Source of the DNA: a virus
Taxonomy: Duplodnaviria; Heunggongvirae; Uroviricota; Caudoviricetes
Reading direction: 5' to 3' (one strand)
Virus record (IMG/VR): IMGVR_UViG_2778261450_000006
Span: 1-41,586 of that record
Length of the DNA: 41,586 nt
In this document: positions 5,391 to 40,571 of the stretch, in pieces
How the letters are laid out: each line of letters starts with the position of its first letter
How positions within the stretch are numbered: position 1 is the first letter of the stretch
Made by a program: the position numbers and the translations under genes
Notes under the pieces: model-generated
Told to the model about the DNA's origin: nothing
The model's database searches: none
What the model saw: the letters and a program-made list of their open reading frames with translations, nothing else

Positions 5391-5435
5391 TGGTGGAGCT
5401 GGCGGGAGTTGAACCCGCGTCCGAAATTCCTACAT
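5391..5435. repeat. 45-bp direct repeat identical to the 3' end of ssrA (att core; prophage attR and original island att)
   Basis: tggtggagctggcgggagttgaacccgcgtccgaaattcctacat is identical to 40527-40571; flanks diverge on both sides. Confidence 0.9.
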
Positions 5436-5528
5436 ACCATTTTCACTATAACAAAAACATTAACTTGCGTTTAAAATCATCAAGTTAGTATTATCTTATG
5501 TTTGTCCGTTTTACTCATTTTTAATGCT

Positions 5529-5548
5529 CTGTCGCCAATCTGTCGCCA
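5529..5548 (+). repeat. Two direct copies of CTGTCGCCA 11 bp apart (candidate integrase arm-type sites)
   Basis: ctgtcgcca at 5529-5537 and 5540-5548; the same 9-10-mer recurs as an inverted pair at 40430-40468 near the other prophage end. Confidence 0.4.
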
Positions 5549-5550
5549 CA

Positions 5551-6201
5551 TTATCCGCTGCTTGAGTTGAAATCTGTGGGTTTACGGAGATTAGATCTTA
5601 TGGTTTTTTCAGCGATACGAATAGTCGAAAATTTATGCAGGTTCATCAGTGCTATACAAATCCCAAGTGCAAAAAAGTAGCTGGACATTCCTAATCTTTG
5701 CATATCAGTAAGTTTATTAATTTTCTCTAAAATATGTTGGGTTACTAATCCTTCGTATACAAAAGGTATGGAAGTTATAAAACCGCCAATAAAATAGAAT
5801 GTTAAGCTTATCAGCTTTATAGATTTTCTATATATCCAAAAGCGATATCTTTTTTTTGTCCATTTAAATATTTGTTTTTCACTACTAATAGAAATTAGTT
5901 TTTGACACTTGCTATAGTTATCAATGTCATTAACTGGATCGTTAACACCTAAAAGAATCTCTCTCTGTTCTGGAGTTAGGTTCTTATCTTTTGTTATTGC
6001 AGCAATACCATAATTATATGCAACTTTCTTGATTTTGGGATCTTCAGTATTCTTATATAGATTGTATGCAAACTCGCTAATGTTTTTGCGCGAGTTGAAA
6101 ATCTTATCTTTGGGGAAAACCCAGCCGGATCTTACCGCGAGCATCTGTATGATCGGGGTAATTATCGCGACAGAATACTTAATTATCTCGTTTATGTTCA
6201 T
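5551..6201 (-). CDS. AT-rich cargo protein with C-terminal transmembrane segments (hypothetical; moron between attR and int)
   Basis: 216-aa ORF, lysine-rich and AT-rich, hydrophobic segments LISLTFYFIGGFITSIPFVY and MSSYFFALGICIALM. Not part of the canonical P2/186 gene set at this position. Confidence 0.5.
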   Translation of the reverse strand: MNINEIIKYSVAIITPIIQMLAVRSGWVFPKDKIFNSRKNISEFAYNLYKNTEDPKIKKVAYNYGIAAITKDKNLTPEQREILLGVNDPVNDIDNYSKCQKLISISSEKQIFKWTKKRYRFWIYRKSIKLISLTFYFIGGFITSIPFVYEGLVTQHILEKINKLTDMQRLGMSSYFFALGICIALMNLHKFSTIRIAEKTIRSNLRKPTDFNSSSG

Positions 6202-6215
6202 GATCCATTGTTTAC

Positions 6216-7232
6216 TTAAATTAAGTTATAAAGAGGGTTTTTTGTTACTGCATCCTCCAGGTGGTCTGGAGAGAAGTGTGCATAAATCATCGTCATTTTA
6301 ATATCTGAGTGCCCTAAAATATCACGTAAAACGAGTATGTTCCCACCGTTCATCATAAAATGGCTGGCAAATGTATGGCGCAGGACGTGGGTGCATTGGC
6401 CTTCCGGTAGTTCAATACCGGCCCGTTTTACCGCCCGTTCAAAGGCTTTTCTGCATGGTGTGAATAATTTCCCTCGGTTTTTGGGTAGCTCGTTGTACAG
6501 ATCCTGAGATATCGGTACGGTACGGTTTTTTTTACCCTTGGTCTTTGTATAGGTAATCCGGTATTTCGATAGTTGATGGCCCTGCAGGTTTTCAGCTTCA
6601 CTCCAACGAGCACCGGTTGCTAGGCATATTTTTGCAATCATTAGCAGACTGGGGCTTTGAGAATCAGCACAGGCATCCAGCAGACGTTTAATTTCCTCCG
6701 GGGTTAGGAACGCCAGTTCACCCTCCGTAATTTTAAATGTTGGAAGCCCGGCAAGCGGGTTGGGGGCTGACCAGTGGCCCAGCTTTTTCAGTGTACCAAA
6801 AACAGATGATAGGTTGCGCTGTTCAAGGTTTACCGTGCGGGGCTTAACGGGTGACATGAACGAGCCGTCTTCATTTTGGACCTCCCCCTTTAATCTGGCT
6901 TCCCGATATTTTGTGAAATCACCTGCTGTCAGCTCAGAGGCGATGGGATCGCCTAGACCATTACAGATAATTCTAAGTTTCGCCATCAGGCGTTTGGGGT
7001 CTGCGAGTGTTTGACCATATAGGGAATACCACTGCTCAATCACTTCTGATAATCGCCGCCGATCTTCCTTCTCACCAAGCCATGGCTTTTTGTTTACTTC
7101 GTTCATGGTGAAGTTTTCGAATGCTATGGCTTCGCCTTTCGTGGCAAATTGCTTACGCACGCGCTTGCCATTGCGTCCATTGGGATAGCACTCACACAAC
7201 CATTTTCCGTTCGGCTGTTTTCTGATGGTCAT
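6216..7232 (-). CDS. int: P2/186-family tyrosine integrase
   Basis: 338 aa; GRNGKRVRKQF...AFE N-terminus and C-terminal LATGARWSEA ... HVLRHTFASHFMMNGG ... LGHSDIKMTMIYAHF catalytic region, as in P2 Int. Confidence 0.9.
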   Translation of the reverse strand: MTIRKQPNGKWLCECYPNGRNGKRVRKQFATKGEAIAFENFTMNEVNKKPWLGEKEDRRRLSEVIEQWYSLYGQTLADPKRLMAKLRIICNGLGDPIASELTAGDFTKYREARLKGEVQNEDGSFMSPVKPRTVNLEQRNLSSVFGTLKKLGHWSAPNPLAGLPTFKITEGELAFLTPEEIKRLLDACADSQSPSLLMIAKICLATGARWSEAENLQGHQLSKYRITYTKTKGKKNRTVPISQDLYNELPKNRGKLFTPCRKAFERAVKRAGIELPEGQCTHVLRHTFASHFMMNGGNILVLRDILGHSDIKMTMIYAHFSPDHLEDAVTKNPLYNLI

Positions 7233-7233
7233 A

Positions 7234-7866
7234 TCAAAGGCTCTTAATGATTTTCAGTGCACGGCCTACTACCTCAATGTCATCCAGGCCACACTCAAAC
7301 GATGAATCATCCTGATGCACTACTAATCTGTTTCCCGGGAGTCGAGTCAATTTAACAATGCTTTTTATCCCGTCGATATCGACTAACCACATACCATTCA
7401 CTGGTGGTGTTTGGTTGCGATCTATTAAATAAGAATCACCAGAAGTAGTCACCAGCAGTAGGTTGCTTGAGTCTGAGGGGAGTATGCTGCTATCAATGAT
7501 TGCTTTTCCAGCATCGACCAATAAACCACCGTTGAGAGTCGCCTTGTCAATTTCAGGAGATACTAGTTCAGAAAGAGGTACAACCTTGCTGGAGTTCACG
7601 GAATTGATATTTTTTTTAGGTTCAATGTTTGGACCTGGCTCCCCCTGTCCGGTGGTTAGCCACAGTAAAGAAACTCCTGTTTCCAAGGCGCACTGAATCA
7701 CCCACTCTGCAGGAAAACTATCTCTTAAGTATCTGTTTGCCATGGTGCTTTTTGATGCGCCTAAGTGATCGCAAAGTTGCTGTCTGGACTTGAAATCATA
7801 GGCTGCCATTAGTCTATGGATAGCTTCTCTTCCCCCTGTATTCTCTCCAGCCTTTACCTGTATCAT
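7234..7866 (-). CDS. cI: CI-type immunity repressor (186 CI-like)
   Basis: 210 aa directly upstream of int on the same strand, divergent from apl/cII; N-terminal motif QCALETGVSLLWLTTGQG resembles 186 CI. Confidence 0.8.
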   Translation of the reverse strand: MIQVKAGENTGGREAIHRLMAAYDFKSRQQLCDHLGASKSTMANRYLRDSFPAEWVIQCALETGVSLLWLTTGQGEPGPNIEPKKNINSVNSSKVVPLSELVSPEIDKATLNGGLLVDAGKAIIDSSILPSDSSNLLLVTTSGDSYLIDRNQTPPVNGMWLVDIDGIKSIVKLTRLPGNRLVVHQDDSSFECGLDDIEVVGRALKIIKSL

Positions 7867-7877
7867 TTTTTAATCCT

Positions 7878-7930
7878 GTTGACGTATCAAATATTGGATC
7901 GTAGTATCTCGATGTATCAAATATTGAATC
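7878..7930. promoter_or_regulatory. Immunity switch region: candidate rightward promoter (TTGACG 7878-7883, TAGTAT 7902-7907) with two 17-bp direct-repeat operator-like elements
   Basis: gtatcaaatattggatc (7884-7900) and gtatcaaatattgaatc (7914-7930) lie between divergent cI and apl. Confidence 0.4.
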
Positions 7931-7985: not shown

Positions 7986-8228
7986 ATGAGCACTGATATT
8001 TCAATTCGTGTACCAAAAGAGATGGCTACGCCTGCAGAGTTCGCGGAATGGGAAGGTATCTCCCGCGGCTCCGTGTATCAAAAAATTCACCATGGTCAGC
8101 TTGCTAAATACATGGTCAAGAAAGAAAAAAATAAAGGCCGCGTAAACCTTCGTTATCTGATGTACAAAACTGATCAGGTCCGTGAATCCCTCGGTCATTC
8201 CAACTTCCGCGTCATTGTTGGTAAGTAA
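7986..8228 (+). CDS. apl: Apl/Cox-like excisionase and transcriptional regulator
   Basis: 80-aa ORF first in the rightward early operon, divergent from cI, followed by cII-like gene; position and size match 186 apl. Confidence 0.7.
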   Translation: MSTDISIRVPKEMATPAEFAEWEGISRGSVYQKIHHGQLAKYMVKKEKNKGRVNLRYLMYKTDQVRESLGHSNFRVIVGK

Positions 8229-8260
8229 GTTCAATTATGGGAACTTTCTAAGGGGGCACC

Positions 8261-8770
8261 ATGTTTGATTACAAGATTTCCAAACATCCGCATTTCGATG
8301 AAGCCTGTAGGGCTTTTGCACTGCGTCACAACCTGGTGCAACTGGCAGAACGTGCAGGCATGAATGTACAGATTCTGCGGAACAAGCTGAACCCAGCTCA
8401 GCCTCATTTATTAACCGCACCAGAAATCTGGCTGCTTACCGATCTGACTGAAGATTCAACGCTGGTAGATGGTTTTCTGGCACAGATTCATTGTCTGCCA
8501 TGTGTACCGATTAATGAGGTGGCAAAAGAGAAACTGCCACATTACGTCATGAGTGCAACCGCAGAGATCGGGCGTGTTGCTGCAGGTGCGGTATCTGGCG
8601 ATGTAAAAACCTGTGCCGGTCGTCGTGATGCTATCAGCAGCATTAACTCTGTAACACGACTGATGGCGCTGGCGGCTGTTTCATTGCAGGCCCGTTTACA
8701 GGCTAATCCTGCGATGGCGAGTGCAGTTGATACCGTGACTGGCCTCGGTGCTTCATTCGGTTTGCTGTGA
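8261..8770 (+). CDS. cII: CII-like lysogeny-establishment activator (186 CII family)
   Basis: [24 protein letters not shown]...[33 protein letters not shown] closely resembles 186 CII as recalled. Confidence 0.8.
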
Positions 8771-8777
8771 GGTGCTT

Positions 8778-9074
8778 ATGCTGACGAAAGAACCATCATT
8801 TGCATCGCTGCTGGTAAAACAAAGCCCGGCAATGCACTACGGTCACGGCTGGATCATGGGTGAGGATGGTAAACGCTGGCACCCGTGCCGTTCACAAGAT
8901 GAATTGCTGTCTGAATTGACCACGGGGAAACGGAGAAAGTCAAAATGTATGCAGCGGAAAGTGAAGTGGTTTATCAGTTTCGTTACAGAGGGGAGAGTTA
9001 TTCAGTACCTGAAGATGATTTGCTCTGTTGTTATCCGTCGTTGTCGGGCGATGGCAGTTACTTTTTCACGCTAA
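8778..9074 (+). CDS. Hypothetical early protein (extent uncertain; 3' part overlaps next ORF)
   Basis: ATG at 8778 just after cII stop; reading frame stays open to 9074 but overlaps the better-supported ORF starting at 8945. Confidence 0.3.
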   Translation: MLTKEPSFASLLVKQSPAMHYGHGWIMGEDGKRWHPCRSQDELLSELTTGKRRKSKCMQRKVKWFISFVTEGRVIQYLKMICSVVIRRCRAMAVTFSR

Positions 9075-9169
9075 AGGATGGGACGTTTTTACGAGGAGAG
9101 CAGGTTAAAGAAACGATACGAAAAAATGTATCTCCTCTCGAACGTTACCGTAAGAACAAAGAACAATAG
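8945..9169 (+). CDS. Hypothetical early protein
   Basis: 74-aa ORF with GGAGAAAG RBS upstream of ATG. Confidence 0.45.
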   Translation: MYAAESEVVYQFRYRGESYSVPEDDLLCCYPSLSGDGSYFFTLKDGTFLRGEQVKETIRKNVSPLERYRKNKEQ

Positions 9170-9191
9170 TTGCGTTTTGGGGATATGAATT

Positions 9192-9533
9192 ATGGCAATT
9201 AATGGCGCTGCAGCGACTGTTCCATTAAGCCCCGGTGAACGCCTGAATGGACTTAATCATATTGCGGAGTTAAGGGCGAAAGTATTTGGCCTTAATATTG
9301 AGTCAGAGCTTGAGCGGTTTATTAAAGATATGCGTGATCCACGGGATATCAATAATGAACAAAATAAACGGGCACTGGCTGCCATATTCTTTATGGCAAA
9401 AATTCCAGCTGAACGTCATAGCATCAGCATTAATGAGCTGACCACTGACGAAAAGCGGGAGTTGATTAAAGCAATGAATCATTTTCGTGCAGTGGTGAGC
9501 TTATTTCCCAGACGGCTAACCATGCCGAATTAA
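9192..9533 (+). CDS. Hypothetical phage early protein
   Basis: 113-aa ORF in early operon with plausible RBS. Confidence 0.5.
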   Translation: MAINGAAATVPLSPGERLNGLNHIAELRAKVFGLNIESELERFIKDMRDPRDINNEQNKRALAAIFFMAKIPAERHSISINELTTDEKRELIKAMNHFRAVVSLFPRRLTMPN

Positions 9534-9600
9534 CCAACTAATGAAATTAATGGCGTAAACCCGCCGGGCATCCCTTTATCTAAATTCAGGAGAATTGATT

Positions 9601-9834
9601 ATGCGTAATATTGAAACCCTCTCGACTAAAACCGGACCGGATGACGCAGGGCTTAATATTTTACTGACAGAGGCTCGTCTGGAAGAACGCCGGGCAAGGG
9701 CTGAAGCAATGGCAGCTCGCCTTGATAGCCTGGCGTGTCATATCACATCCCGCCAGCTAAACCACGTCGAAGCGGCAGAACTGCTGCGTGTAACTGCTGA
9801 AGCAATCCAGAACGAAGCGCAGGAGATCCACTAA
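9601..9834 (+). CDS. Hypothetical phage early protein
   Basis: ATG at 9601 preceded by AGGAG (track ORF starts at TTG 9595); stop overlaps next start (TAATG). Confidence 0.5.
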   Translation: MRNIETLSTKTGPDDAGLNILLTEARLEERRARAEAMAARLDSLACHITSRQLNHVEAAELLRVTAEAIQNEAQEIH

Positions 9835-10061
9835 TGGCTGATGCAATGGATCTCGTACAGCAGCGCGTTGAAGAAGAACGCCAGCGCCATATTCGTGCTG
9901 CCCGTGCCAAAACACCGGGCGTGTCTCGCGTGCTTTGTATTGAATGTGAAGCGCCAATTCCGCCAGCACGACGCCGCGCCATTCCGGGAGTGCAGCTTTG
10001 CATTACCTGCCAGGAAATCGTAGAGCTGAAAGGCAAACATTACAACGGAGGTGCTGTATGA
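9834..10061 (+). CDS. TraR/DksA-family C4 zinc-finger protein
   Basis: 75 aa with CIECEAPIP...CITCQ four-cysteine motif typical of phage TraR/DksA-like proteins. Confidence 0.7.
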
Positions 10062-10360
10062 CAAGGGCAGTGCGTATCCATCAATTAAAAATTGCACCTA
10101 AGTATTTCAACGCTGTGGTTGCAGGTCAAAAGACGGCTGAACTTCGTAAAGACGATCGTGGCTATAAAGTTGGTGATGTTCTTTCTCTTTGCGAATGGAA
10201 GCATGGCGTATTTACGGGTAGGGAATGGGCCGCTGTTATCTCTCATGTGCTTCCGGTTAATGACGTCATGGCAGTTTCAGAACAATGGGTGATGCTATCA
10301 ATTCGCCCATTAACTCCATTAGAAGCTTTGGGATATGTTATTGCAGGAGGTGCTGTATGA
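10058..10360 (+). CDS. Hypothetical protein, possibly ASCH-like/DUF3850 fold
   Basis: 100-aa ORF starting at ATG 10058 with GGAGG RBS; start and stop junctions overlap neighbours (ATGA). Confidence 0.5.
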
Positions 10361-11214
10361 GCACCATCCTGAAATGGGCAGGTAATAAAACTGCCATTAT
10401 GTCCGAACTGAAAAAACATCTTCCTGCTGGCCCGCGACTGGTTGAACCTTTCGCGGGTTCCTGTGCTGTGATGATGGAGACGGATTACCCCAGCTATCTT
10501 GTTGCGGATATTAATCCTGATTTAATCAACCTCTATAAAAAGGTTGCTGCTGATTGTGAATCGTTTATATCTCGCGCCAGAGTTTTATTTGAGATCGCAA
10601 ACAGGGAGGTGGCTTATTACAACATAAGGCAGGAGTTTAATTACTCAACTGAAATTACTGATTTCATGAAAGCGGTATATTTCCTGTATCTAAATCGTCA
10701 CGGTTACCGTGGTTTATGTCGCTATAACAAGAGCGGGCATTTCAACATTCCCTACGGTAATTATAAAAATCCGTATTTCCCTGAAAAAGAAATTCGCGCA
10801 TTTGCAGAAAAAGCCCAGCGAGCAACGTTTATCTGCGCCAGCTTTGATGAAACGCTGGCGATGTTGAAAGCGGGGGATGTGGTGTATTGCGATCCGCCGT
10901 ATGACGGTACGTTTTCCGGCTATCACACTGACGGCTTCACTGAAGATGACCAGTATCACCTGGCATCTGTTCTTGAACATCGGTCATCAGAAGGACATCC
11001 GGTCATTGTTTCTAACAGTGACACATCCCTGATCCGTTCGCTGTATCGCAATTTTACTCACCACTACATCAAGGCAAAACGCAGCATCGGTGTGGCAGCT
11101 GGCGAGGGTAAATCAGCAACAGAAATCATTGCTGTTTCCGGGCCGCGCTGCTGGGTGGGATTTGATTATTCGCGTGGCGTGGATAGTTCTGCCGTGTACG
11201 GAGTACGTGCATGA
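10357..11214 (+). CDS. dam: Orphan DNA adenine methyltransferase (Dam family)
   Basis: Start [18 protein letters not shown] (AdoMet-binding) and DPPY catalytic motif; no adjacent restriction endonuclease gene. Confidence 0.85.
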
Positions 11215-13625
11215 GTCATGCCGATATGAACAACTGCTGCGGCTTTAACGAAGCTGCCGCATCGTTCTCATGGAACAGCCCGAAAAAGGCCATTAACCCT
11301 TATCTGGACCCGGCGGAAGTTGCGCCGGTTTCTACGCTTTCAAACCTGATCACTCTGTACGCTGCCGATAACGAGCAGGAACAGCTGCGCCGTGAGGCGC
11401 TGAGTGATCAGGTCTGGGAGCGTTATTTCTTTAATGAATCCCGTGATCCTGTCCAGCGCGAAATGGAGCAGGATAAGCTCATTAGTCGGGCAAAGCTGGC
11501 GCATGAGCAGCAGCGTTTTAACCCGGACATGGTCATTCTGGCAGACGTCAGCGCCCAGCCCTCCCATATCAGCAAGCCGCTGATGCAACGTATTGAATAC
11601 TTCAGCAGCCTTGGCAGGCCAAAGGCTTATTCCCGCTATTTGCGTGAGACGATTAAGCCATGTCTGGAACGGCTGGAGCATGTACGCGACAGTCAGCTAT
11701 CCACATCTTTTCGCTTTATGGCAAGCCATGAAGGGCTGGACGGCCTGCTGATTCTGCCTGAAATGAGTCAGGATCAGGTGAAACGCCTGTCCACCCTTGT
11801 TGCTGCGCATATGAGCATGTGCCTTGATGCAGCTTGTGGCGATTTGTATGTCACCGATGACGTTAAGCCAGAAGAAATCCGCAAGACATGGGAAAAGGTG
11901 GCAGCAGAAACCCTGCGACTGGATGTCATACCGCCTGCGTTTGAGCAACTCCGCCGGAAAAGAAACCGCCGTAAACCCGTGCCATATGAACTCATTCCGG
12001 GTTCGCTGGCGCGTATGTTGTGCGCCGATTGGTGGTACCGGAAATTATGGAAGATGCGTTGCGAATGGCGGGAAGAGCAGTTGCGTGCTGTTTGCCTGGT
12101 CAGCAAAAAAGCATCTCCCTATGTCAGCTATGAAGCCGTGATGCATAAACGTGAGCAGCGCCGTAAGTCGCTGGAGTTTTTCCGTTCTCATGAACTGGTG
12201 AACGAAGACGGCGACACGCTGGACATGGAGGATGTGGTAAACGCCAGCAGCAGCAACCCTGCGCATCGCCGCAATGAGATGATGGCCTGTGTTAAAGGTC
12301 TGGAGCTTATCGCGGAAATGCGCGGTGACTGCGCCGTTTTCTACACCATCACCTGTCCGTCACGTTTCCATTCCACGCTAAATAACGGCAGGCCCAACCC
12401 GACCTGGACAAATACGACGGTAAGACAAAGCAGTGATTATCTGGTCGGCATGTTTGCTGCATTTCGTAAGGCGATGCACAAAGCCGGATTGCGCTGGTAT
12501 GGCGTGCGGGTGGCTGAGCCGCATCATGACGGTACAGTTCACTGGCACCTGTTGTGTTTTATGCGCAAAAAAGATCGCCGCACCATTACTGCTTTGTTGC
12601 GTAAGTTTGCCATTCGTGAAGACCGCGAGGAGCTGGGTAATAACACGGGACCACGCTTTAAGTCTGAGCTGATAAACCCGCGCAAAGGTACGCCAACAAG
12701 CTACATCGCGAAATACATCAGTAAGAACATTGACGGGCGTGGTCTGGCTGGCGAGATCAGCAAGGAAACGGGTAAATCCCTGCGTGATAACGCTGAATAC
12801 GTTAATGCCTGGGCGTCTCTGCATCGTGTTCAGCAATTCCGCTTCTTTGGCATTCCGGGGCGTCAGGCTTACCGTGAACTGCGATTGCTGGCTGGTCAGG
12901 CGGCAAGGCAACAGGGGGACAAAAAAGCAGGTGCGCCGGTACTGGATAACCCGCGCCTTGATGCAATCCTGGCTGCTGCTGATGCTGGTTGTTTTGCCAC
13001 CTACATCATGAAGCAGGGCGGCGTACTGGTTCCCCGCAAATATCACCTCATCAGAACTGCTTATGAAATCAACGAAGAACCGACCGCATATGGCGATCAC
13101 GGTATTCGTATTTATGGCATCTGGTCACCCATTGCAGAGGGCAAGATCTGCACTCATGCGGTGAAGTGGAAAATGGTTCGTAAGGCTGTTGACGTTCAGG
13201 AGGCGGCAGCCGACCAGGGCGCTTGCGCCCCTTGGACTCGTGGCAATAACTGTCCCCTTGCTGAAAATTTGAACCAACAAGGGAAAGACAAATCAGCTGA
13301 TGGGGATACCAGAACGGAAATCACCCGCATGGATGACAAGGAATTGCACGATTACCTGCACAGTATGAGCAAAAAAGAGCGCCGGGAACTGGCAGCAAGG
13401 TTACGCCTGGTTAAACCGAAACGGCGTAAAGACTACAAACAGCGAATTACAGATCATCAGCGACAGCAGCTCGTCTATGAACTGAAGTCCAGAGGATTTG
13501 ATGGCAGCGAGAAAGAGGTCGATTTACTCCTTCGCGGCGGCAGTATTCCGTCAGGAGCAGGCCTGCGTATCTTCTATCGGAACCAGCGTCTGCAGGAGGA
13601 TGATAAATGGCGGAACCTGTATTAA
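11211..13625 (+). CDS. A: Replication initiation protein A (rolling-circle nickase, P2 gpA family)
   Basis: 804 aa; HUH-like VHWHLL motif and YIAKYISK tyrosine motif; position between early genes and SOS operon. Confidence 0.9.
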
Positions 13626-33942: not shown

Positions 33943-33951
33943 GGGGACAAC

Positions 33952-34467
33952 ATGGCTTTACCACGCAAATTAAAACATCTGAACCTGTTTAACGACGGGA
34001 ACAACTGGCAGGGGATCGTTGAGTCGCTGACGCTGCCGAAATTCACCCGCAAATATGAGAAGTATCGCGGCGGCGGAATGCCGGGTGCAGTGGATGTGGA
34101 TCTGGGGCTTGATGACAGTGCGCTGGACACAGAATTTTCCATTGGTGGTACTGAACTGCTGCTGTTTAAGCAGATGGGCAAAGCCACGGTAGATGGCATT
34201 CAGCTGCGCTTTACCGGCTCTATCCAGCGTGACGATACCGGGGAAGTGCAGGCCGTGGAGCTTGTGGTGCGTGGACGTCACAAAGAAGTGGATTCCGGCG
34301 AGTGGAAGACGGGCGAAAGCAACACCACCAAAGTGACCAGTACCAACAGCTACGCGAAGCTGACCATCAATGGTGAGGTGCTCTATGAAGTGGACCTTAT
34401 CAACATGGTGGAAATTGTGGACGGTGTGGACCTGATGGAAGCGCACCGCAACGCCCTCGGCCTCTGA
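33952..34467 (+). CDS. FII: Tail tube protein (P2 gpFII family)
   Basis: 171 aa immediately after sheath gene. Confidence 0.9.
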   Translation: MALPRKLKHLNLFNDGNNWQGIVESLTLPKFTRKYEKYRGGGMPGAVDVDLGLDDSALDTEFSIGGTELLLFKQMGKATVDGIQLRFTGSIQRDDTGEVQAVELVVRGRHKEVDSGEWKTGESNTTKVTSTNSYAKLTINGEVLYEVDLINMVEIVDGVDLMEAHRNALGL

Positions 34468-34521
34468 TGTATCTGAACGGCGCGGGATACCGCGCCAGAA
34501 CCCAATTTACAGGACAGCAAA

Positions 34522-34824
34522 ATGAGCGATAAGCAGACTGAAAAGACTATTCAACTGGATACCCCCATCAAGCGCGGTAAAACAGAAATCACCGAAATTG
34601 TGCTGCGTAAACCGCAGTCCGGTGCGCTGCGCGGTACACGCCTGCAGGCCATTATGGATATGGATGTGAACGCGATGATGACCGTGATCCCCCGTATCTC
34701 CAGTCCGGCACTGACTGCACAGGAAATTGCAGAGATGGACCCGGCAGATCTCACTGCCATGTCGGTTGAGGTTGTCACTTTTTTGTTGAAGAAGTCGGTG
34801 CTTGCCGGTTTACCGACAGCCTGA
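34522..34824 (+). CDS. E: Tail assembly chaperone E (P2 gpE family)
   Basis: 100 aa upstream of tape measure; contains slippery T TTT TTG near 3' end. Confidence 0.85.
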   Translation: MSDKQTEKTIQLDTPIKRGKTEITEIVLRKPQSGALRGTRLQAIMDMDVNAMMTVIPRISSPALTAQEIAEMDPADLTAMSVEVVTFLLKKSVLAGLPTA

Positions 34825-34958
34825 CGGTTGACGATCTGGTGGCTGATATCGCCACCATCTTTCACTGGCCGCCATCCGTTACTGACGTTATGCCGCTGAC
34901 CGAAGTGCTGGAATGGCGGTATAAAGCGATTCAGAGAAGCGGGGCCAACGATGAGTGA
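34522..34958 (+). CDS. Predicted E+E' fusion product made by -1 programmed frameshift at TTTTTTG (34779-34785)
   Basis: The -1 frame after the heptamer stays open for 57 codons and stops at TGA 34956-34958, overlapping the T start; same architecture as P2 E/E'. Confidence 0.5.
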
Positions 34959-37900
34959 TAACAACCTGCGGCTGCAGGTCATTCTTAATGCGGTTGACAA
35001 ACTCACCCGCCCATTCCGTGTTGCACAGGCCAGTTCGAAAGAGCTGGCTGGCGCAATTCAGAATACCCGAAACAGCCTCAAAGAACTGAATAAGCAGGCT
35101 GGCAGAATTGATGAATTTCGCAAGACGCGCTCGCAACTAGCCATAACAGCCAACAACCTGAACGCAGCCCGCGAAGAGGCGGCAAAACTCGCCACACAAT
35201 TTGCTGCCACTAACAGGCCAACCGCCGCGCAGGCAAAGTTATTCAGTCAGGCCAAAACACGAGTACAGGAACTTCAGCAGACCTATAACGGCTTGTTGGG
35301 GGCGGTCCAGAGACAACGTCAGGCACTTAAAGAATCAGGGATTGATACCAGACAACTCAGTAGTGCCCAGCGAGAACTTAAGAAAAATGCTGAAGAAACA
35401 AGGCAGGCACTGGAGGGCCAGCAAAAAGCACTTAAACGTCTGGGTGAACAACAGGCACGGATGAACGCTGCCAGAGAACAATACTCAAGACGGCTTGAAG
35501 TGCGCGATCGCATCGCAGGAGCCGGAGCCACTACCACGGCTGCAGGGCTGGCAATGGGTGCGCCAGTGATGGCAGCAGTAAAAAGCTATACCAGCATGGA
35601 AGATGCCATGAAAGGTGTGGCAAAGCAGGTCAATGGTCTGCGTGATGATAATGGCAACCGCACTGCGCGTTTTTACGAAATGCAGGATGCCATCAAGGCT
35701 GCCAGCGAACAGTTGCCGATGGAAAACGGTGCTGTGGACTTTGCCGCACTGGTTGAAGGTGGTGCGCGCATGAACGTCGCAAATCCTGACGACAGCTGGG
35801 AAGACCAGAAACGTGACCTGCTGGCCTTCGCCAGCACGGCAGCAAAGGCGGCAACAGCCTTTGAGCTGCCAGCGGATGAACTGTCAGAAAGTCTGGGGAA
35901 AATCGCCCAGCTCTACAAAATCCCTACCCGCAATATTGAACAGCTCGGTGATGCGCTGAACTATCTGGATGATAACGCCATGTCGAAAGGGTCAGACATC
36001 ATTGATGTCATGCAACGCCTGGGCGGTGTGGCAGATCGTCTGGATTATCGTAAAGCGGCGGCGCTGGGTTCCACCTTCCTGACACTGGGCGCTGCGCCGG
36101 AGGTTGCTGCCAGTGCAGCAAACGCGATGGTGCGTGAATTGTCCATTGCCACCATGCAAAGTAAGAGTTTCTTTGAAGGGATGAATCTGCTGAAACTCAA
36201 TCCTGAAGTGATTGAAAAGCAGATGACGAAGGATGCGATGGGAACTATCCAGCGTGTGCTGGAGAAGGTGAACGCACTGCCGCAGGACAAGCGTCTGTCT
36301 GCCATGACCATGTTGTTTGGTAAAGAGTTTGGTGATGATGCAGCGAAACAGGCAAACAACCTTCCGGAACTGCAGCGCCAGCTAAAACTGACAGCGGGCA
36401 ATGATGCGCTCGGTTCCATGCAGAAAGAATCCGACATCAACAAAGACTCACTTTCCGCTCAGTGGTTGCTGGTCAAAACCGGAGCGCAGAACACCTTCAG
36501 CAGCCTGGGCGAAACGCTGCGCCAGCCGCTGATGGATATTCTGTACACGGTAAAAAGCATCACGGGGGCGTTGCGCCGCTGGGTGGAAGCTAACCCGGAA
36601 CTGACAGGCACACTGATGAAAGTAGCGGCTGTTGTGGCTGCGGTTACCGTAGGCCTCGGCACCTTAGCGGTGGCGCTGGCTGCAGTGCTGGGGCCGCTGG
36701 CAGTCATCCGTCTGGGATTCTCTGTGCTGGGTATCAAAACGTTACCTTCCGTTACGGCAGCAGTAACACGAACCAGCAGCGCGTTGTCCTGGTTAGCTGG
36801 CGCTCCACTGGCACTGCTGCGACGCGGGCTTGCTTCATCGGGCAACGCAGCGGGTTTACTTACTGCGCCGTTGTCGTCTTTGCGCCGCACCGCATCACTG
36901 ACGGGGAATGTCCTGAAAACTGTAGCAGGTGTGCCGGTTGCACTGTTGCGGTCTGGATTATCCGGTTTACGTGCGGTTGCTGTGATGTTTATGAATCCAC
37001 TGGCAGCACTACGCGGTGGACTGGCTGCCGCAGGCGCGGTGCTGCGTGTGCTGGCATCCGGTCCGCTGGCGATGCTGCGCGTTGCCCTGTATGCCGTATC
37101 TGGTCTGTTAGGTGCTCTGCTCAGTCCGATAGGTCTTGTGGTTACTGCACTGGCGGGCGTGGCGCTGGTTGTCTGGAAATACTGGCAACCCATCACCGCA
37201 TTTCTCGGTGGCGTGGTGGAAGGATTCAAAGCGGCGGCAGGTCCCATCAGTGCTGCATTCGAACCGCTTAAGCCCGTGTTCCAGTGGATTGGCGACAAAG
37301 TACAGGCGTTGTGGGGCTGGTTTACTGATCTGCTGACGCCTGTTAAGTCGACCTCTGCCGAACTGCAGAGCGCAGCGGCAATGGGGCGACGATTCGGGGA
37401 GGCACTGGCGGAAGGGCTGAATATGGTCATGCATCCGTTGGACTCCCTGAAATCCGGCGTTTCCTGGTTGCTGGAGAAACTCGGTATTGTCAGTAAAGAG
37501 GCTGCAAAGGCGAAACTGCCGGAAAGCGTGACGCGTCAGCAACCTGCGACGGTGAATGCAGACGGTAAAGTGATGATGCCATCGGGTGGTTTTCCGTCAT
37601 GGGGATATGGCTTTGCGGGGATGTATGACAGCGGCGGCTATATCCCGCGCGGGCAGTTCGGCATTGTCGGTGAAAACGGGCCTGAAATTGTCAACGGTCC
37701 GGCAAACGTGACCAGTCGGAGAAATACAGCTGCACTGGCTGCCGTTGTTGCCGGAATGATGGGCGTTGCTGCCGCGCCTGCAGAGCTTCCGCCGTTACAT
37801 CCTTTGGCACTTCCCGCGAAAGGCGGCGAAGCGATGGTGAGTCGTGCAGCCACTGTGCCGCCCGCTCAACGGATTGAGGCACCGACGCAGATCATCATCC

Positions 37901-38028
37901 AGACGCAGCCAGGACAAAGTGCGCAGGATATTGCGCGGGAGGTGGCACGCCAGCTTGATGAACGTGAACGCAGGCTGAAGGCAAAAGCCAGGAGTAACTA
38001 CAGCGATCAGGGGGGATACGACGCATGA
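34951..38028 (+). CDS. T: Tail tape measure protein (P2 gpT family)
   Basis: 1025 aa, coiled-coil N-terminal half, central hydrophobic Ala/Leu-rich block with tandem ~14-aa repeats, between E and U. Confidence 0.9.
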   Translation: MSDNNLRLQVILNAVDKLTRPFRVAQASSKELAGAIQNTRNSLKELNKQAGRIDEFRKTRSQLAITANNLNAAREEAAKLATQFAATNRPTAAQAKLFSQAKTRVQELQQTYNGLLGAVQRQRQALKESGIDTRQLSSAQRELKKNAEETRQALEGQQKALKRLGEQQARMNAAREQYSRRLEVRDRIAGAGATTTAAGLAMGAPVMAAVKSYTSMEDAMKGVAKQVNGLRDDNGNRTARFYEMQDAIKAASEQLPMENGAVDFAALVEGGARMNVANPDDSWEDQKRDLLAFASTAAKAATAFELPADELSESLGKIAQLYKIPTRNIEQLGDALNYLDDNAMSKGSDIIDVMQRLGGVADRLDYRKAAALGSTFLTLGAAPEVAASAANAMVRELSIATMQSKSFFEGMNLLKLNPEVIEKQMTKDAMGTIQRVLEKVNALPQDKRLSAMTMLFGKEFGDDAAKQANNLPELQRQLKLTAGNDALGSMQKESDINKDSLSAQWLLVKTGAQNTFSSLGETLRQPLMDILYTVKSITGALRRWVEANPELTGTLMKVAAVVAAVTVGLGTLAVALAAVLGPLAVIRLGFSVLGIKTLPSVTAAVTRTSSALSWLAGAPLALLRRGLASSGNAAGLLTAPLSSLRRTASLTGNVLKTVAGVPVALLRSGLSGLRAVAVMFMNPLAALRGGLAAAGAVLRVLASGPLAMLRVALYAVSGLLGALLSPIGLVVTALAGVALVVWKYWQPITAFLGGVVEGFKAAAGPISAAFEPLKPVFQWIGDKVQALWGWFTDLLTPVKSTSAELQSAAAMGRRFGEALAEGLNMVMHPLDSLKSGVSWLLEKLGIVSKEAAKAKLPESVTRQQPATVNADGKVMMPSGGFPSWGYGFAGMYDSGGYIPRGQFGIVGENGPEIVNGPANVTSRRNTAALAAVVAGMMGVAAAPAELPPLHPLALPAKGGEAMVSRAATVPPAQRIEAPTQIIIQTQPGQSAQDIAREVARQLDERERRLKAKARSNYSDQGGYDA

Positions 38029-38510
38029 TGATGGTGCTGGGATTGTACGTGTTTATGCTGCGCACTGTGCCGTATCAGGAACTGCAGTATCAACGCAGCT
38101 GGCGACATGCGGCAAACAGCCGGGTCAACCGACGTCCGTCCACGCAGTTTCTGGGACCGGACAACGACATGCTGACGCTTTCTGGTGTTCTTATGCCGGA
38201 GATAACAGGCGGCAGGCTGTCGTTGCTGGTACTGGAGCAGATGGCAGAACAGGGGAAAGCATGGCCCCTGATTGAAGGCAGCGGCACGATTTACGGCATG
38301 TATGTGATTGAGGGACTGAATCAGACTAAAACGGAGTTTTTCCGCGACGGTATGCCGCGCCGGATTGAGTTCACCCTGTCGCTCAAACGGGTGGATGAAT
38401 CCCTGTCCGATATGTTCGGTGATCTCAGTGCGCAACTGAATAATCTGCAGGACACGGCAACGTCTGCCTTAAGCGATATCAGTAAAACGGTGGGAGGGCT
38501 GCTGTCGTGA
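38025..38510 (+). CDS. U: Tail protein U (P2 gpU family)
   Basis: 161 aa, overlaps T stop. Confidence 0.9.
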   Translation: MMMVLGLYVFMLRTVPYQELQYQRSWRHAANSRVNRRPSTQFLGPDNDMLTLSGVLMPEITGGRLSLLVLEQMAEQGKAWPLIEGSGTIYGMYVIEGLNQTKTEFFRDGMPRRIEFTLSLKRVDESLSDMFGDLSAQLNNLQDTATSALSDISKTVGGLLS

Positions 38511-39607
38511 ATTTCAGCTCTGAACTGCTTAACAAAGGCAACAAAACTCCCGCATTCAGCATCAGTATTGAGGGCAGGGATATCACCACTGTGCTGGATA
38601 ACCGCCTGATGAGTTTGACGCTGACGGACAATCGGGGCTTTGAAGCAGACCAGCTTGATCTGGAGCTGGACGACGCCGACGGAAAAATCGTGCTGCCGCG
38701 CCGTGGTGCGGTTATTACGCTGGCGCTGGGCTGGAAGGGGCAGCCGCTTTTCCCGAAAGGGGCATTCACGGTGGACGAGATTGAACACACTGGCGCACCG
38801 GACCGCCTGACTATCCGGGCGCGAAGTGCTGATTTTCGTGAAACGCTGAATACCCGCCGTGAAAAGTCGTGGCACAAGACCACCGTTGGGGAAGTGGTGA
38901 AGGAAATAGCTGCACGGCACAAACTGAAGATGGCATTGGGTAAAGACCTGTCAGATAAACCCGTGGAACATATAGACCAGACCAATGAGAGTGACGGCAG
39001 TTTTCTGATGCGACTGGCGCGCCAGTACGGTGCTATTGCATCGGTGAAAAATGGCAATCTGTTATTCATCCGGCAGGGACAGGGCAAAAGCGCCAGCGGT
39101 AAACCACTGCCGGTGATCACTATCACGCGTAAGGACGGCGACAGTCACCGCTTTACCCTGGCAGATCGCGGAGCCTATACGGGCGTCATTGCCAGCTGGT
39201 TGCATACCCGCGAACCCGCGAAGAAAGAAAGCACCACGGTGAAGCGTAAGCGCAGAACTAAGAAGCAGAAGAAAGAGCCGGAAGCGAAGCAGGGCGATTA
39301 TCTGGTGGGGACGGATGAAAACGTGCTGGTACTTAATCGCACTTATGCCAACCGGAGCAACGCCGAACGAGCGGCGAAAATGCAGTGGGAACGCCTGCAA
39401 CGCGGTGTTGCGTCATTCTCGCTACAACTGGCGGAAGGTCGGGCAGATCTCTACACGGAAATGCCTGTGAAGGTCAGTGGCTTTAAACAGCCAATAGATG
39501 ATGCGGAATGGACCATTACGACTCTGACACATACCGTCAGCCCGGATAACGGTTTTACGACCAGTATTGAACTTGAAGTGAAAATTGGTGATCTTGAAAT
39601 GGAATAA
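38507..39607 (+). CDS. D: Tail protein D (P2 gpD family)
   Basis: GTG start overlapping U stop with GGGAGGG RBS; 366 aa. Confidence 0.9.
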   Translation: MNFSSELLNKGNKTPAFSISIEGRDITTVLDNRLMSLTLTDNRGFEADQLDLELDDADGKIVLPRRGAVITLALGWKGQPLFPKGAFTVDEIEHTGAPDRLTIRARSADFRETLNTRREKSWHKTTVGEVVKEIAARHKLKMALGKDLSDKPVEHIDQTNESDGSFLMRLARQYGAIASVKNGNLLFIRQGQGKSASGKPLPVITITRKDGDSHRFTLADRGAYTGVIASWLHTREPAKKESTTVKRKRRTKKQKKEPEAKQGDYLVGTDENVLVLNRTYANRSNAERAAKMQWERLQRGVASFSLQLAEGRADLYTEMPVKVSGFKQPIDDAEWTITTLTHTVSPDNGFTTSIELEVKIGDLEME

Positions 39608-39675
39608 ATGGTTCTCAATATTGATATTTTGTGTATCATTGCAATGATTCTGATAGCAAAGGTAGGGATCTGGAT

Positions 39676-39894
39676 ATGATGAATTGTCCAAAGTGTGGTC
39701 ATGCGGCGCACACAAGGAGCAGTTTTCAAGTAACAGAAAGCACCAAAGAGCGTTACTGCCAGTGCCAAAATATTAACTGCGGGAGCACTTTTGTTACCCA
39801 TGAAACAGTGGTCCGGTTTATTGTGACACCTGCAGTGATTGCCACAGCCCCTCCACATCCATTGCCAGGTGGTCAGGGCCATATGAATTTTTAA
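39676..39894 (+). CDS. ogr: Ogr/Delta-type zinc-finger late transcription activator
   Basis: MMNCPKCGHAAHTRSS ... CQCQNINCGSTF ... PHPLPGG resembles P2 Ogr; track ORF begins upstream at 39631. Confidence 0.85.
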   Translation: MMNCPKCGHAAHTRSSFQVTESTKERYCQCQNINCGSTFVTHETVVRFIVTPAVIATAPPHPLPGGQGHMNF

Positions 39895-39901
39895 GAAAGA
39901 G

Positions 39902-39922
39902 AACCTGCTACGGCAGGTTTTT
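39902..39922. terminator. Rho-independent terminator after ogr (possibly bidirectional)
   Basis: aacctgc-tacg-gcaggtt stem-loop followed by TTTATT; also closes the convergent minus-strand gene. Confidence 0.6.
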
Positions 39923-40403
39923 ATTCATCTGGGATCTCACCCGTTTCAAGAAAATGTATAAAGCCAGGCTCATCTATGATGATAGTGCCTTTCATCCTGG
40001 CTGCCGATACTTTTGATGGGCCTGCATTGTAACCGCAACAGAGCATCTGAAGGTTTTGGGTTACAGATGTTCTTACCGTTAATCCTTGTTCATTCGCCTT
40101 ATCAACCAACCTTTCTTTATCTGCTTTCTTAAATCCGGTGAAACACACATCGAATGTATTTTTTTTCGGACCTGACTGCTTAGTGAGATGTGAGTAGTTT
40201 TCGGGGAGGAATGACGCGCATTCCTGAATGGCTTGTTCTTGTGAATCGTATTGTTTAAGAATGCGGTCTTTTCGGAAGGTTTTTATTCGATCGGTGTTCT
40301 TACAAATGCCCTGTATGTGATTTTCGCTATAACTGATGCTCTGTATTGAGTGAACACCGATACGACCATTTGCATTGATGTAAACAAAGTGAAGTTCTTC
40401 CAT
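39921..40403 (-). CDS. Cargo protein with WYL-like N-terminal region and BRCT-like C-terminal domain
   Basis: 160 aa, AT-rich, between ogr and attL. N-terminal RIKTFRKDRI resembles the WYL signature; C-terminal CFTGFKKADKERLVDKANEQGLTV ... GTIIIDEPGFIHFL resembles a BRCT fold. Confidence 0.5.
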   Translation of the reverse strand: MEELHFVYINANGRIGVHSIQSISYSENHIQGICKNTDRIKTFRKDRILKQYDSQEQAIQECASFLPENYSHLTKQSGPKKNTFDVCFTGFKKADKERLVDKANEQGLTVRTSVTQNLQMLCCGYNAGPSKVSAARMKGTIIIDEPGFIHFLETGEIPDE

Positions 40404-40429
40404 GTCAAACCTCTTTGCATGATTTCAAG

Positions 40430-40468
40430 ATGGCGACAGGCAAGATGGACGCAAAAGTCTGTCGCCAT
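40430..40468. repeat. Inverted pair of CTGTCGCCAT (candidate integrase arm-type sites or hairpin) near attL
   Basis: atggcgacag (40430-40439) and ctgtcgccat (40459-40468); same motif as the direct repeats at 5529-5548. Confidence 0.4.
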
Positions 40469-40484
40469 TTTGCCGCCACTACCT

Positions 40485-40518
40485 AAGAAAAAGGGGCTAC
40501 GCTTTCACGTAACCCCTT
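40485..40518 (-). terminator. ssrA rho-independent terminator (supplied by the prophage side of attL)
   Basis: On the minus strand, 9 nt past the tmRNA 3' end: 11-bp stem (one G-U pair), 6-nt loop, then UUUUUCU. Confidence 0.55.
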
Positions 40519-40526
40519 GATTTATT

Positions 40527-40571
40527 TGGTGGAGCTGGCGGGAGTTGAACCCGCGTCCGAAATTCCTACAT
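40527..40571. repeat. 45-bp att core (3' end of ssrA), direct repeat of 5391-5435
   Basis: Exact 45/45 identity; it is the 3'-terminal 45 nt of the tmRNA gene. Confidence 0.9.

Follow-up and report, generated by a model that had tools for sequence, protein, structure and literature searches.

Probable sequential occupation of the tmRNA gene ssrA by a P4-family-integrase island and a Fels-2/SopEPhi-type P2-like prophage in Escherichia coli

Introduction

In the stretch of E. coli DNA analysed here (41,586 nt, hereafter the window), two integrase genes of different families lie downstream of ssrA, the gene for tmRNA. This raises the question of whether one element or two entered this target, and in which order. 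The first-pass annotation had proposed sequential integration at one tmRNA site, with a 186-like prophage inserted between ssrA and a pre-existing island. Our analysis establishes that there are two separate elements, and we consider it very likely that two independent integrative elements used the one tmRNA target, the island first and a Fels-2/SopEPhi-type prophage later. The layout itself, an ssrA prophage together with an island, is ordinary, well documented and already known.

Results

Duplication of the ssrA 3' end

40527-40889, minus strand: intact, full-length ssrA (ARAGORN; Rfam RF00023, 295.8 bits, model positions 1-374)
41104-41586, minus strand: chromosomal smpB, upstream of ssrA (160-aa ORF; region 100% identical to annotated smpB of E. 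coli genomes)
40527-40571, no strand assigned: core copy 1, the working ssrA 3' end and ssrA-proximal prophage junction (exact repeat; four-way att alignment with the arms swapped at the block)
5391-5435, no strand assigned: core copy 2, a displaced, non-functional ssrA 3' fragment, serving as the int-side prophage junction and the island's ssrA-side junction

The ssrA gene encodes the tag peptide ANDENYALAA, and its 3' 124 nt are 100% identical to those of K-12. Read on the plus strand, its 3' end is the 45-nt block TGGTGGAGCTGGCGGGAGTTGAACCCGCGTCCGAAATTCCTACAT. The duplication reported in the first-pass annotation is real and exact: the second copy lies in direct orientation, and the window holds no third one. 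Outside the block the identity ends on both sides ('ag' versus 'tt' before it, 'ACCA' versus 'CCTC' after it). A search with the first 20 nt of the block, allowing up to 3 mismatches, found 2 matches in the window, both of them core copies, and 0 of 100 shuffles matched; by our own arithmetic, an exact pair of 45-mers would be expected by chance about 1e-18 times in 41.6 kb. The locus thus carries the signature by which Islander recognises a tDNA-integrated element, namely an intact ssrA and a same-orientation displaced 3' fragment with the element between them, and a tyrosine integrase gene (int, 6216-7232) within the interval.

Unoccupied and occupied sites in other genomes

The prophage-free genome AMSHJX01 breaks exactly at the 45-nt block: window 1-5435 aligns to it with 1 mismatch and 40527-41586 with 0 mismatches, and the two alignments overlap by exactly 45 nt. 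The repeat is therefore the element boundary, and synteny did not break elsewhere. When 5436-40571 was deleted in silico, many E. coli genomes proved to hold the resulting junction uninterrupted, with identities of up to 100%. This synthetic island-only junction is present in 956 of 5426 complete E. coli genomes (at least 80% covered, in a single place); among the E. coli genomes listed, at least 13 have the rebuilt island-ssrA join at 100% identity and lack the prophage. Unoccupied-site relatives breaking at the repeat belong to the Islander signature as well.

A repeated 45-mer could mislead a short-read assembler on mixed samples, and the window might in that case be a chimera joining alternative ssrA-adjacent elements of different strains. 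We find this hardly credible, since the exact junction of island, 45 nt and prophage arm (window 5150-5548) occurs in one piece in 49 of the 5426 complete E. coli genomes, and the ssrA-prophage junction in 166 E. coli genomes.

Reconstruction of attP

When the prophage ends were joined in silico, the product was the attP of phages Cartapus, MLG42 and SEN8. In these three genomes the sequence up to 40526, the 45 nt and the sequence from 5436 onwards are joined directly, with no island DNA; the exact block separates the D/ogr side from int, and its flanks hold the same terminator hairpin and 'ACCATTTTT'. Such contiguous arm-core-arm sequences in free or circular elements are a further part of the Islander signature. 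MLG42 (a Yersinia phage, isolated on Y. pestis) and SEN8 (a Salmonella phage) were deposited as circular phage genomes. Cartapus was deposited as a re-annotated prophage of LF82, and its attP join may be the depositors' reconstruction. Four-way alignment of attP, attB, attL and attR displays a classic exchange of arms at the 45-nt block.

These attP sites also bear on whether 1-40526, with both integrases, might be one composite mobile element at ssrA. Both integrase genes do lie downstream of ssrA, and a single repeat pair is visible in the window. This reading is nevertheless extremely improbable, because phage genomes with a 94% identical Int close their attP over the 45-nt core without island DNA, and because the prophage-free junctions described above (at least 13 listed genomes at 100% identity, 956 at 80% coverage or more) hold the island alone. 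In strain E47, moreover, the same prophage end adjoins another P4-type element, past which lies one more ssrA fragment, of 15 nt; since the prophage abuts another neighbour there, the two elements are independent. The P4-type integrase accordingly does not belong to the same element as the prophage.

Terminator and arm sites

40491-40518, minus strand: phage-supplied intrinsic terminator, starting 8 nt past the ssrA 3' end (12-bp stem, GAAA loop, T-run)
40431-40479, no strand assigned: putative Int arm-type sites (TGTCGCCA / TGCCGCCA motifs) in the ogr-side attP arm, with TGTCGCCA at 40431 (minus) and 40460 (plus)
5530-5548, plus strand: putative Int arm-type sites, two TGTCGCCA, in the int-side attP arm

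The prophage had been credited with supplying the new ssrA 3' end and terminator, and this holds: the hairpin and T-run at 40518-40491 (folding energy -19.8 kcal/mol, z = -4.8) are kept in the attP of Fels-2, Cartapus, MLG42 and SEN8. The arm motifs of GGCGGCA/GGCGACA type are putative Int arm-type binding sites. They match 7 times in the window against 1.6 expected, 4 of the 7 adjoining the two core copies, and they resemble the annotated Int arm consensus of phage 186, YAYCGCCAYTY. The arm on the int side (5436-5548) is also found in Cartapus, with 86.8% identity by blastn over 5391-5548.

Gene content of the prophage

5551-6201, minus strand: 216-aa protein of unknown function (phrog_21256), in a variable cargo slot between int and attP
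6216-7232, minus strand: tyrosine integrase of Fels-2 type, predicted ssrA-specific (Pfam Int_N + Phage_integrase, P2/186 family)
7234-7866, minus strand: 186-type CI repressor (Pfam Phage_CI_repr + Phage_CI_C)
7986-13625, plus strand: early operon with apl, cII, fil-like, DUF5347, Dam methylase and replication protein A genes (Pfam Phage_CP76, DUF5347, MethyltransfD12, Phage_GPA)
13720-14210, plus strand: LexA-type box (13720-13735), then tum-like and DinI-like genes
17222-39607, no strand assigned: P2-type late region with portal, terminase, scaffold, capsid, lysis, baseplate, tail fibre with invertase, sheath, tube, tape measure and D (ORFs, Pfam, homology)
19504-19506, minus strand: in-frame ochre stop TAA in the terminase ATPase subunit gene (18259-20025; translation GATF*FAREA)
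39631-39894, plus strand: ogr / 186-B-type late-gene activator (annotated homologue about 39676-39894; phrog_603; annotated in E47 as ogr/Delta-like zinc finger protein)
39921-40403, minus strand: BRCT-like cargo gene adjoining the junction (weak Pfam BRCT match; phrog_2561, E = 2.5e-77)

The P2-type int does lie at the prophage end far from ssrA, as originally noted. Its product is 94.4% identical to Fels-2 Int (337 aa), 93.8% to Cartapus Int and 54% to 186 Int. Judged by such comparisons, the prophage is of Fels-2/SopEPhi type, P2-like (Peduoviridae), with an Int orthologous to the ssrA-specific Int of Fels-2. A 186-type switch (CI with Phage_CI_C, Apl, CII) is combined with a P2-type replication gene A, and the early proteins are close to those of Fels-2 (Apl 98.7%, CII 90.5%, A 89% identity). 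CI is 57.6% identical to Fels-2 CI and 32% to 186 CI, and the former value suggests a different immunity class from Fels-2. The stretch 13720-14210 is probably an SOS induction module: CTGTAAATATAAACAG is the sole CTGT-N8-ACAG in the window, the DinI-like ORF (13977-14210) matches phrog_189, and the layout of LexA box and tum-like gene corresponds to the p95/LexA/tum annotation of 186.

Homology to the prophages annotated in A41 and E47 shows all P2-type morphogenesis modules to be present. Identity is 98.3% to the A41 prophage over 15241-27568, where the A41 locus stops, and 99.9% to E47 over 31979-41586. In A41 the terminase codon that is TAA here is TAC; the TTTTACTTTGCC context is the same in E47. 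The TAA may reflect a true defect or an error of sequencing; because of this premature stop, the prophage copy may no longer make particles. The int-attP slot holds different genes in Cartapus, A41 and E47, and the 216-aa protein encoded there in the window had no match in Pfam, NCBIfam or PADLOC. In Cartapus the homologue of the BRCT-like gene bears the annotation 'putative exonuclease', and the lysogen expresses it (PMC9928086).

The island with the P4-family integrase

3996-5267, minus strand: P4-family integrase of the older island (annotated homologue start about 5225; Pfam Arm-DNA-bind_3, Phage_int_M, Phage_integrase)
1-3957, no strand assigned: island cargo, comprising a HATPase_c/HEF_HK protein (1-1719, plus), a Response_reg_2 protein (1703-3469, plus) and a 138-aa hypothetical protein (3541-3957, minus)
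5327-5353, minus strand: island-supplied terminator-like hairpin (weak, z = -0.9)

The integrase gene lies 124 nt from the displaced 45-nt copy and points in the same direction as ssrA. Its product has the domains of the P4 family, PF13356 (2.2e-22), PF22022 (2.7e-23) and PF00589 (1.9e-19), and scores 440.4 bits against NCBIfam NF007246 (cutoff 434). The cargo region is 99.98% identical to that of AMSHJX01, in which the island hairpin directly follows ssrA. The far boundary of the island lies outside the window and was examined in relatives only. A41, AMSHJX01 and CP026085 carry an IS3-truncated island remnant of about 5.4 kb; its far end is marked by IS3 and a truncated ygaQ, and its form is the same whether or not the prophage is present. 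No further ssrA fragment for the island was found in the window, nor in the equivalents in these three relatives to glaH and beyond. Loss of the island's own distal att site is thus apparent in close relatives, which places the prophage beside an island remnant rather than beside a second complete mobile element.

Order of events

The island-first order comes from population data and would run as follows. An older island with a P4-family integrase would have entered the extreme 3' end of ssrA. In close relatives IS3 would since have trimmed it to some 5.4 kb, leaving int, one small hypothetical gene and the pair of histidine-kinase-like and receiver-domain genes. At a later time a P2-like phage of Fels-2/SopEPhi type, 35.1 kb long and equipped with a CI/Apl/CII switch in the style of 186, would have integrated into the functional ssrA, its own tyrosine integrase acting through an attP that held an exact copy of the last 45 nt of the gene. 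Recombination inside the identity block would have yielded a complete ssrA with phage DNA as its downstream terminator and displaced the old 3' fragment, attached to the island, by 35 kb. Because the copies do not differ, precise excision would give back a wild-type ssrA with the island attached, and prophage-free genomes could in principle arise in this way.

The reverse order, in which the prophage came first and the island later entered the displaced fragment at its int end, is formally possible, because the P4-type elements of this locus use a short core, some 15-19 nt at the extreme 3' end of ssrA (K-12 CP4-57 attR; the 15-nt fragment of E47); this core is nested in the displaced copy, which is hence still a potential target. 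We consider it very unlikely, however. The island shows the same IS3 truncation, truncated ygaQ and lack of a distal ssrA fragment with and without the prophage (A41, AMSHJX01, CP026085), and the island-only junction outnumbers the tandem one about 20-fold (956 versus 49 genomes). The island is also almost identical to that of the prophage-free AMSHJX01 (1 mismatch in 5435 nt), more so than to that of the tandem strain A41 (23 mismatches), while among tandem strains the prophages diverge by 2-6% and carry different cargo (that of A41 is 94-98% identical to ours). This pattern fits repeated prophage arrivals beside a fixed island, and island-first is the order that we prefer.

Comparison with known systems

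Fels-2 and SopEPhi of Salmonella enterica are reported to integrate into ssrA (PMC3448106; PMC10107115, Table 1). They have the same gene order, with ogr beside ssrA and int at the far end, and their attP shares the ssrA 3' block, terminator hairpin and GGCGGCA/GGCGACA arm motifs with the window prophage. The latter differs in its host, E. coli, in its cargo (PDC-M03 pair, DUF6602 nuclease, 216-aa ORF, BRCT-like gene) and in the terminase nonsense codon. Cartapus (LF82 prophage 4; Elveevirus), described as Fels-2-like with low spontaneous production (PMC9928086), matches window 36700-40571 at 99.8% DNA identity, with no difference in the 45-nt core, but its int-proximal cargo is a RES/NAD+ protein, and its int-side arm and int gene are 84-87% identical in DNA.

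Coliphage 186 (Eganvirus) has the same switch layout, with int-cI leftward, apl-cII rightward, a LexA-controlled tum module and the B/ogr activator beside attP, and its attP combines a tRNA-gene 3' fragment with Int arm sites of related consensus. The proteins are distant, however (Int 54%, against 94% for Fels-2; CI 32%, Apl 30%, A 35%), and 186 targets ileY/ileX rather than ssrA (PMC3448106). The term '186-like' therefore holds for the architecture only.

CP4-57 of K-12 has a P4-family integrase gene immediately downstream of ssrA in the same orientation, the island supplying the sequence after ssrA. The first-pass comparison with CP4-57 is sound for this ssrA-intA layout, with the integrase gene next to the displaced copy, but not for kinship. 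We rejected CP4-57 as the identity of the island: its Int is 48% identical to K-12 IntA, the cargo is unrelated, and the CP4-57 gene content (alpA, yfjH-ypjF) is missing, with no homologue of alpA anywhere in the window. When window 1-5435 was compared by blastn with K-12 2754500-2790000, nothing matched beyond the ssrA fragment and the roughly 70 nt that follow it. CP4-57 also retains a degenerate distal repeat (psaA), whereas relatives of the window island have none.

Islander lists 125 tandem arrays among 3919 islands, with the tmRNA gene as the most enriched target (PMC4383910). For Salmonella LT2, Fels-2 (P2 integrase) and Stm27X (P4 integrase) are both listed as adjacent to ssrA (PMC10107115, Table 1, citing Williams 2003). 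Under the strict Islander definition, each member of a tandem array has its own integrase, as here (P2-family, 6216-7232; P4-family, 3996-5267), and its own displaced tDNA fragment; the prophage has one, and the island, for which none was found, appears to have lost its own and so falls outside that definition. In such arrays the newest element adjoins the intact tDNA and the older ones are displaced with tDNA fragments, which is the arrangement that we propose for the window.

The 45-nt repeat of ssrA

The tmRNA gene ssrA is complete at 40527-40889 on the minus strand and encodes the tag ANDENYALAA (ARAGORN and Rfam agree; RF00023, 295.8 bits, full model). Its 3' end, read on the plus strand, is TGGTGGAGCTGGCGGGAGTTGAACCCGCGTCCGAAATTCCTACAT at 40527-40571, and a second exact copy of these 45 nt lies in direct orientation at 5391-5435, with the identity ending sharply on both sides. 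When a 20-mer of the block was searched with up to 3 mismatches, it matched only the two copies in the window, and none of 100 shuffles gave a match. The exact copy, the 20-mer search and the shuffles thus bear out the ssrA repeat noticed in the first-pass annotation. Since the 1.8 kb nearest ssrA matches E. coli strains at 100%, including E47 (a strain carrying the prophage beside other neighbours), the window can be assigned to E. coli DNA.

Table. Features flanking the two copies of the 45-nt block.
1-3469, plus strand: kinase/receiver pair of the island, overlapping genes
3996-5267, same direction as ssrA: P4-family integrase gene of the island (P4-family domain set, passes NCBIfam NF007246)
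Beyond the P4-family integrase gene: 138-aa ORF of the island
5551-6201, minus strand: 216-aa ORF between int and the attP arm (phrog_21256, unknown function)
6216-7232: P2/186-family int, at the far prophage end from ssrA
7234-7866: 186-type cI, next to int
40518-40491: phage-supplied hairpin, 12 bp plus T-run, 8 nt past the ssrA 3' end (-19.8 kcal/mol, z = -4.8)
41104-41586, minus strand: smpB, upstream of ssrA

Prophage boundaries and attachment sites

The limits of the prophage, the element between the two copies, were examined by two reconstructions. In one, 5436-40571 was deleted in silico, and the resulting junction between the P4-integrase island (1-5390) and ssrA was searched in 5426 complete E. 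coli genomes at a coverage of at least 80%. This junction is present uninterrupted in 956 of them, many at 100% identity. The island-only record AMSHJX01 aligned to 1-5435 with 1 mismatch and to 40527-41586 with none, the two alignments sharing exactly 45 nt. By these alignments it is a near-isogenic site without the prophage, and the proposed comparison with prophage-lacking genomes thus places the break in synteny exactly at the block.

In the other reconstruction, the prophage ends were joined (...40571 + 5436...), and the joined sequence is contiguous in phage genomes. The Escherichia phage Cartapus (LF82 prophage 4) matches 36700-40571 at 99.8% and continues into 5391-5548, the overlap being again exactly 45 nt; as Cartapus is a re-annotated LF82 prophage, its attP join may itself be a reconstruction. 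Its low-level production has been reported by virome sequencing and qPCR (PMC9928086). The exact block lies between the D/ogr side and int in Cartapus, in MLG42 (circular record of a Yersinia phage isolated on Y. pestis) and in the Salmonella phage SEN8, with the same hairpin before it and the same ACCATTTTT after it in all three. A four-way alignment of attL, attR, attP and attB gives a textbook arm exchange at the block. With the island-only junction found in other genomes and attP contiguous in phages, both reconstructions agree in identifying the 45-nt repeat as the element boundary, and the exact prophage limits are 5436-40526 plus one 45-nt core. The ssrA-prophage junction occurs in 166 complete E. 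coli genomes, and the exact junction of island, 45 nt and prophage arm in 49.

The hairpin following ssrA is phage-supplied and conserved in Fels-2, Cartapus, MLG42 and SEN8, so the earlier proposal that the prophage provides the ssrA terminator is correct. The share of phage-derived sequence within the 45 nt is set by the crossover point, which identical repeats cannot reveal. The ssrA gene stays intact, and excision of the prophage would restore it. There are 7 copies of the motif TGTCGCCA in the window, where 1.6 would be expected; four of the seven lie within ~110 nt of the core copies (5530, 5541, 40431 on the minus strand and 40460). The motif is similar to YAYCGCCAYTY, which is annotated around attP of phage 186 as the arm-type consensus of Int, and the copies near the cores are putative Int arm sites.

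Identity of the prophage

From ssrA towards lower coordinates, the prophage carries a BRCT-like gene, an ogr-type activator gene, P2-type tail, lysis and head genes, and a replication and early operon, followed by cII, apl, cI, int, the 216-aa ORF and the displaced 45-nt copy. Annotated homologues are present in E47 and in A41, a tandem E. coli strain. At the level of gene layout, the P2-type int is distal to ssrA and the P4-type integrase gene lies past the displaced copy, as first described.

The Int, Apl, CII and A proteins are 94.4%, 98.7%, 90.5% and 89% identical to those of Fels-2, respectively. The Fels-2 record also has the same polarity, with the attP half beside ogr and int at the opposite end, and integration at ssrA is reported for Fels-2 and SopEPhi in PMC3448106 and Table 1 of PMC10107115. 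On the basis of these identities, the shared site and the polarity, we classify the prophage as a Fels-2/SopEPhi-type member of Peduoviridae. The original label "186-like" therefore holds for the switch architecture only, because Int is 54% identical to that of 186. CI is 57.6% identical to its Fels-2 counterpart, which suggests a different immunity class.

CTGT-N8-ACAG occurs once in the window, as a LexA-type box at 13720-13735 (CTGTAAATATAAACAG). It directly follows gene A and precedes two ORFs that together span 13778-14210, the first small and the second DinI-like. This layout mirrors the p95-LexA-tum module of 186 and parallels that of TumB in PSP3/Fels-2; from the analogy with p95-LexA-tum, we infer that the prophage would be SOS-inducible.

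The gene for the terminase ATPase subunit (P2 gpP homologue; 18259-20025, minus strand) contains an in-frame ochre TAA at 19504-19506, which would cut the protein short at residue 173 of 588. The codon is TAC (Tyr) in A41, and E47 has the same TTTTACTTTGCC context as the window. Because of this stop codon, the prophage is probably packaging-defective, unless the TAA is a sequencing error.

The P4-integrase island

The island resembles CP4-57 of K-12 by position, not by identity: its integrase is 48% identical to IntA, and the rest of 1-5390 has no CP4-57 match. The CP4-57-type arrangement proposed earlier thus survives as an ssrA-int layout only. We also rejected the reading that the integrase is K-12 intA and the island CP4-57. 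It rested on a 99.9% island-ssrA junction match to CP026085, a record labelled "DH5alpha" that has no CP4-57 there; the IntA of MG1655 is only 48% identical. In this 4.83-Mb RefSeq record (NZ_CP026085.1), an IS3-truncated short island replaces CP4-57 at ssrA. The record thus does not resemble a K-12 derivative at this locus, and the strain label may be wrong.

As the window begins at the ATG of the kinase gene, the far boundary of the island was seen in relatives only. In tandem A41 and in AMSHJX01 and CP026085, both island-only, the island ends upstream of the kinase-like gene, at an IS3 ~150 bp away, followed by an N-terminally truncated ygaQ-like pseudogene and then glaH; the annotated CP026085 locus has the same IS3 and truncated ygaQ. 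In these relatives, the second island boundary that was to be mapped has no ssrA fragment: no further one was found in the window, nor by blastn-short in A41 and AMSHJX01. The island in these relatives therefore appears to be a ~5.4 kb remnant without its original distal att site.

The kinase/receiver pair comprises a 572-aa histidine-kinase-like protein (HEF_HK + HATPase_c) and a 588-aa Response_reg_2 receiver-domain protein whose long C-terminal part is uncharacterised; the pair is possibly a conflict system of the two-component type. PADLOC gave no meaningful match for the pair, the 138-aa ORF or the 216-aa ORF, and NCBIfam gave only sub-threshold histidine-kinase matches.

Order of integration

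The island differs from that of prophage-free AMSHJX01 by 1 mismatch in 5435 nt and from that of tandem A41 at 23 positions, and the truncated form is the same with and without a prophage. The A41 prophage is only 94-98% identical to that of the window and carries different cargo. Junction counts stand at 956 for island-only versus 49 for tandem. P4-type elements at ssrA use a short terminal core, also present at attR of K-12 CP4-57, which is nested in the 45-nt block. In E47, the int end of the prophage leads through a 45-nt copy to a different P4-type integrase gene, a SIR2 gene and a P4-like satellite, then to a 15-nt ssrA end and another integrase gene. The prophage therefore occurs beside different neighbours. 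E47 itself was rejected as the source strain, since this locus is rearranged around IS26 and IS1 and has other neighbours.

Taken together, the E47 neighbours, the nested P4 core, the near-identical island, the variable prophages and the junction counts favour, for INDEPENDENCE and the order of events, a resident island followed by repeated prophage arrivals on the ssrA-proximal side. The sequential integration at one tmRNA site proposed at the outset is thus favoured by these comparisons, and its order is what we strongly infer.

The E47 locus (NZ_CP121151.1, 17600-32500) is a three-member ssrA array in which the prophage is split by an IS26-associated rearrangement, the satellite has SIR2 cargo and its own P4-type integrase gene, and the 15-nt ssrA end comes with a further integrase gene adjoining IS1. 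Here the P4-like satellite shares one tmRNA site with a P2-type phage. P4 satellites depend on P2-type helpers, and the two form a putative helper/satellite pair.

Cargo genes

The cargo deserves more attention than the architecture, namely a PDC-M03 pair, a tail-region nuclease gene, the int-attP slot and the kinase/receiver pair of the island. Two genes at 15536-17187 (plus strand), with the early region on one side and the portal gene on the other, match the PADLOC candidate defence system PDC-M03, with a PDC-M03A component (E = 2e-122, weak HipA_C-like kinase signal) and a PDC-M03B component (E = 3e-93, HIRAN domain). A 328-aa DUF6602/PD-(D/E)xK nuclease gene (25614-26600, minus strand; NucC-like in PADLOC) is placed between tail-completion gene S and baseplate gene V in the opposite orientation; it looks like acquired cargo and is possibly a defence effector. 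The 216-aa ORF had no Pfam, NCBIfam or PADLOC match. In Cartapus its slot is filled by a RES/NAD+ protein, in A41 by a 309-aa hypothetical protein and in E47 by an anti-phage dCTP deaminase, and the slot behaves like a variable defence-gene hotspot.

A Hin/Cin/Gin-type serine invertase gene (32055-32627, plus strand) adjoins genes for an alternative tail-fibre C-terminus and for assembly, both inverted (31632-32033 and 31209-31628, minus strand), which indicates that 31209-32627 is a host-range switching segment, annotated likewise in Fels-2.

Comparison with known ssrA elements

When the P4-type element CP4-57 excises in K-12, tmRNA loses U357 and ArfA takes over ribosome rescue (PMC10107115). 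In the window, the 45-nt fragment at the ssrA-side junction of the island is dead, and a phage with scarless excision supplies the live 3' end and terminator of ssrA. We regard it as very unlikely that the prophage functionally insulates ssrA from the P4-type island, as a domesticated block retained with a nonsense mutation and defence-type cargo; if true, the ssrA switch set off by excision of P4-type islands would be disarmed by Fels-2-type phages. Since the island seems to lack its distal att site in this lineage, that switch is probably already dead here.

The tandem layout at ssrA is correct, precise and ordinary, one more example of the repeated traffic at the tmRNA gene that is known from Salmonella and E. 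coli. Its value is mainly in annotation, giving exact prophage boundaries and separating two elements that automated callers might merge. Islander catalogued 125 tandem tDNA arrays, with the tmRNA gene as the most enriched target (PMC4383910). According to Table 1 of PMC10107115, the ssrA 3' end after excision is unchanged with P2-integrase elements and would be mutated by most of the listed P4-integrase elements; the identical 45-nt repeats fit the scarless P2-integrase pattern. The same table, citing Williams 2003, places Fels-2 (P2 integrase) and Stm27X (P4 integrase) together at ssrA of Salmonella LT2.
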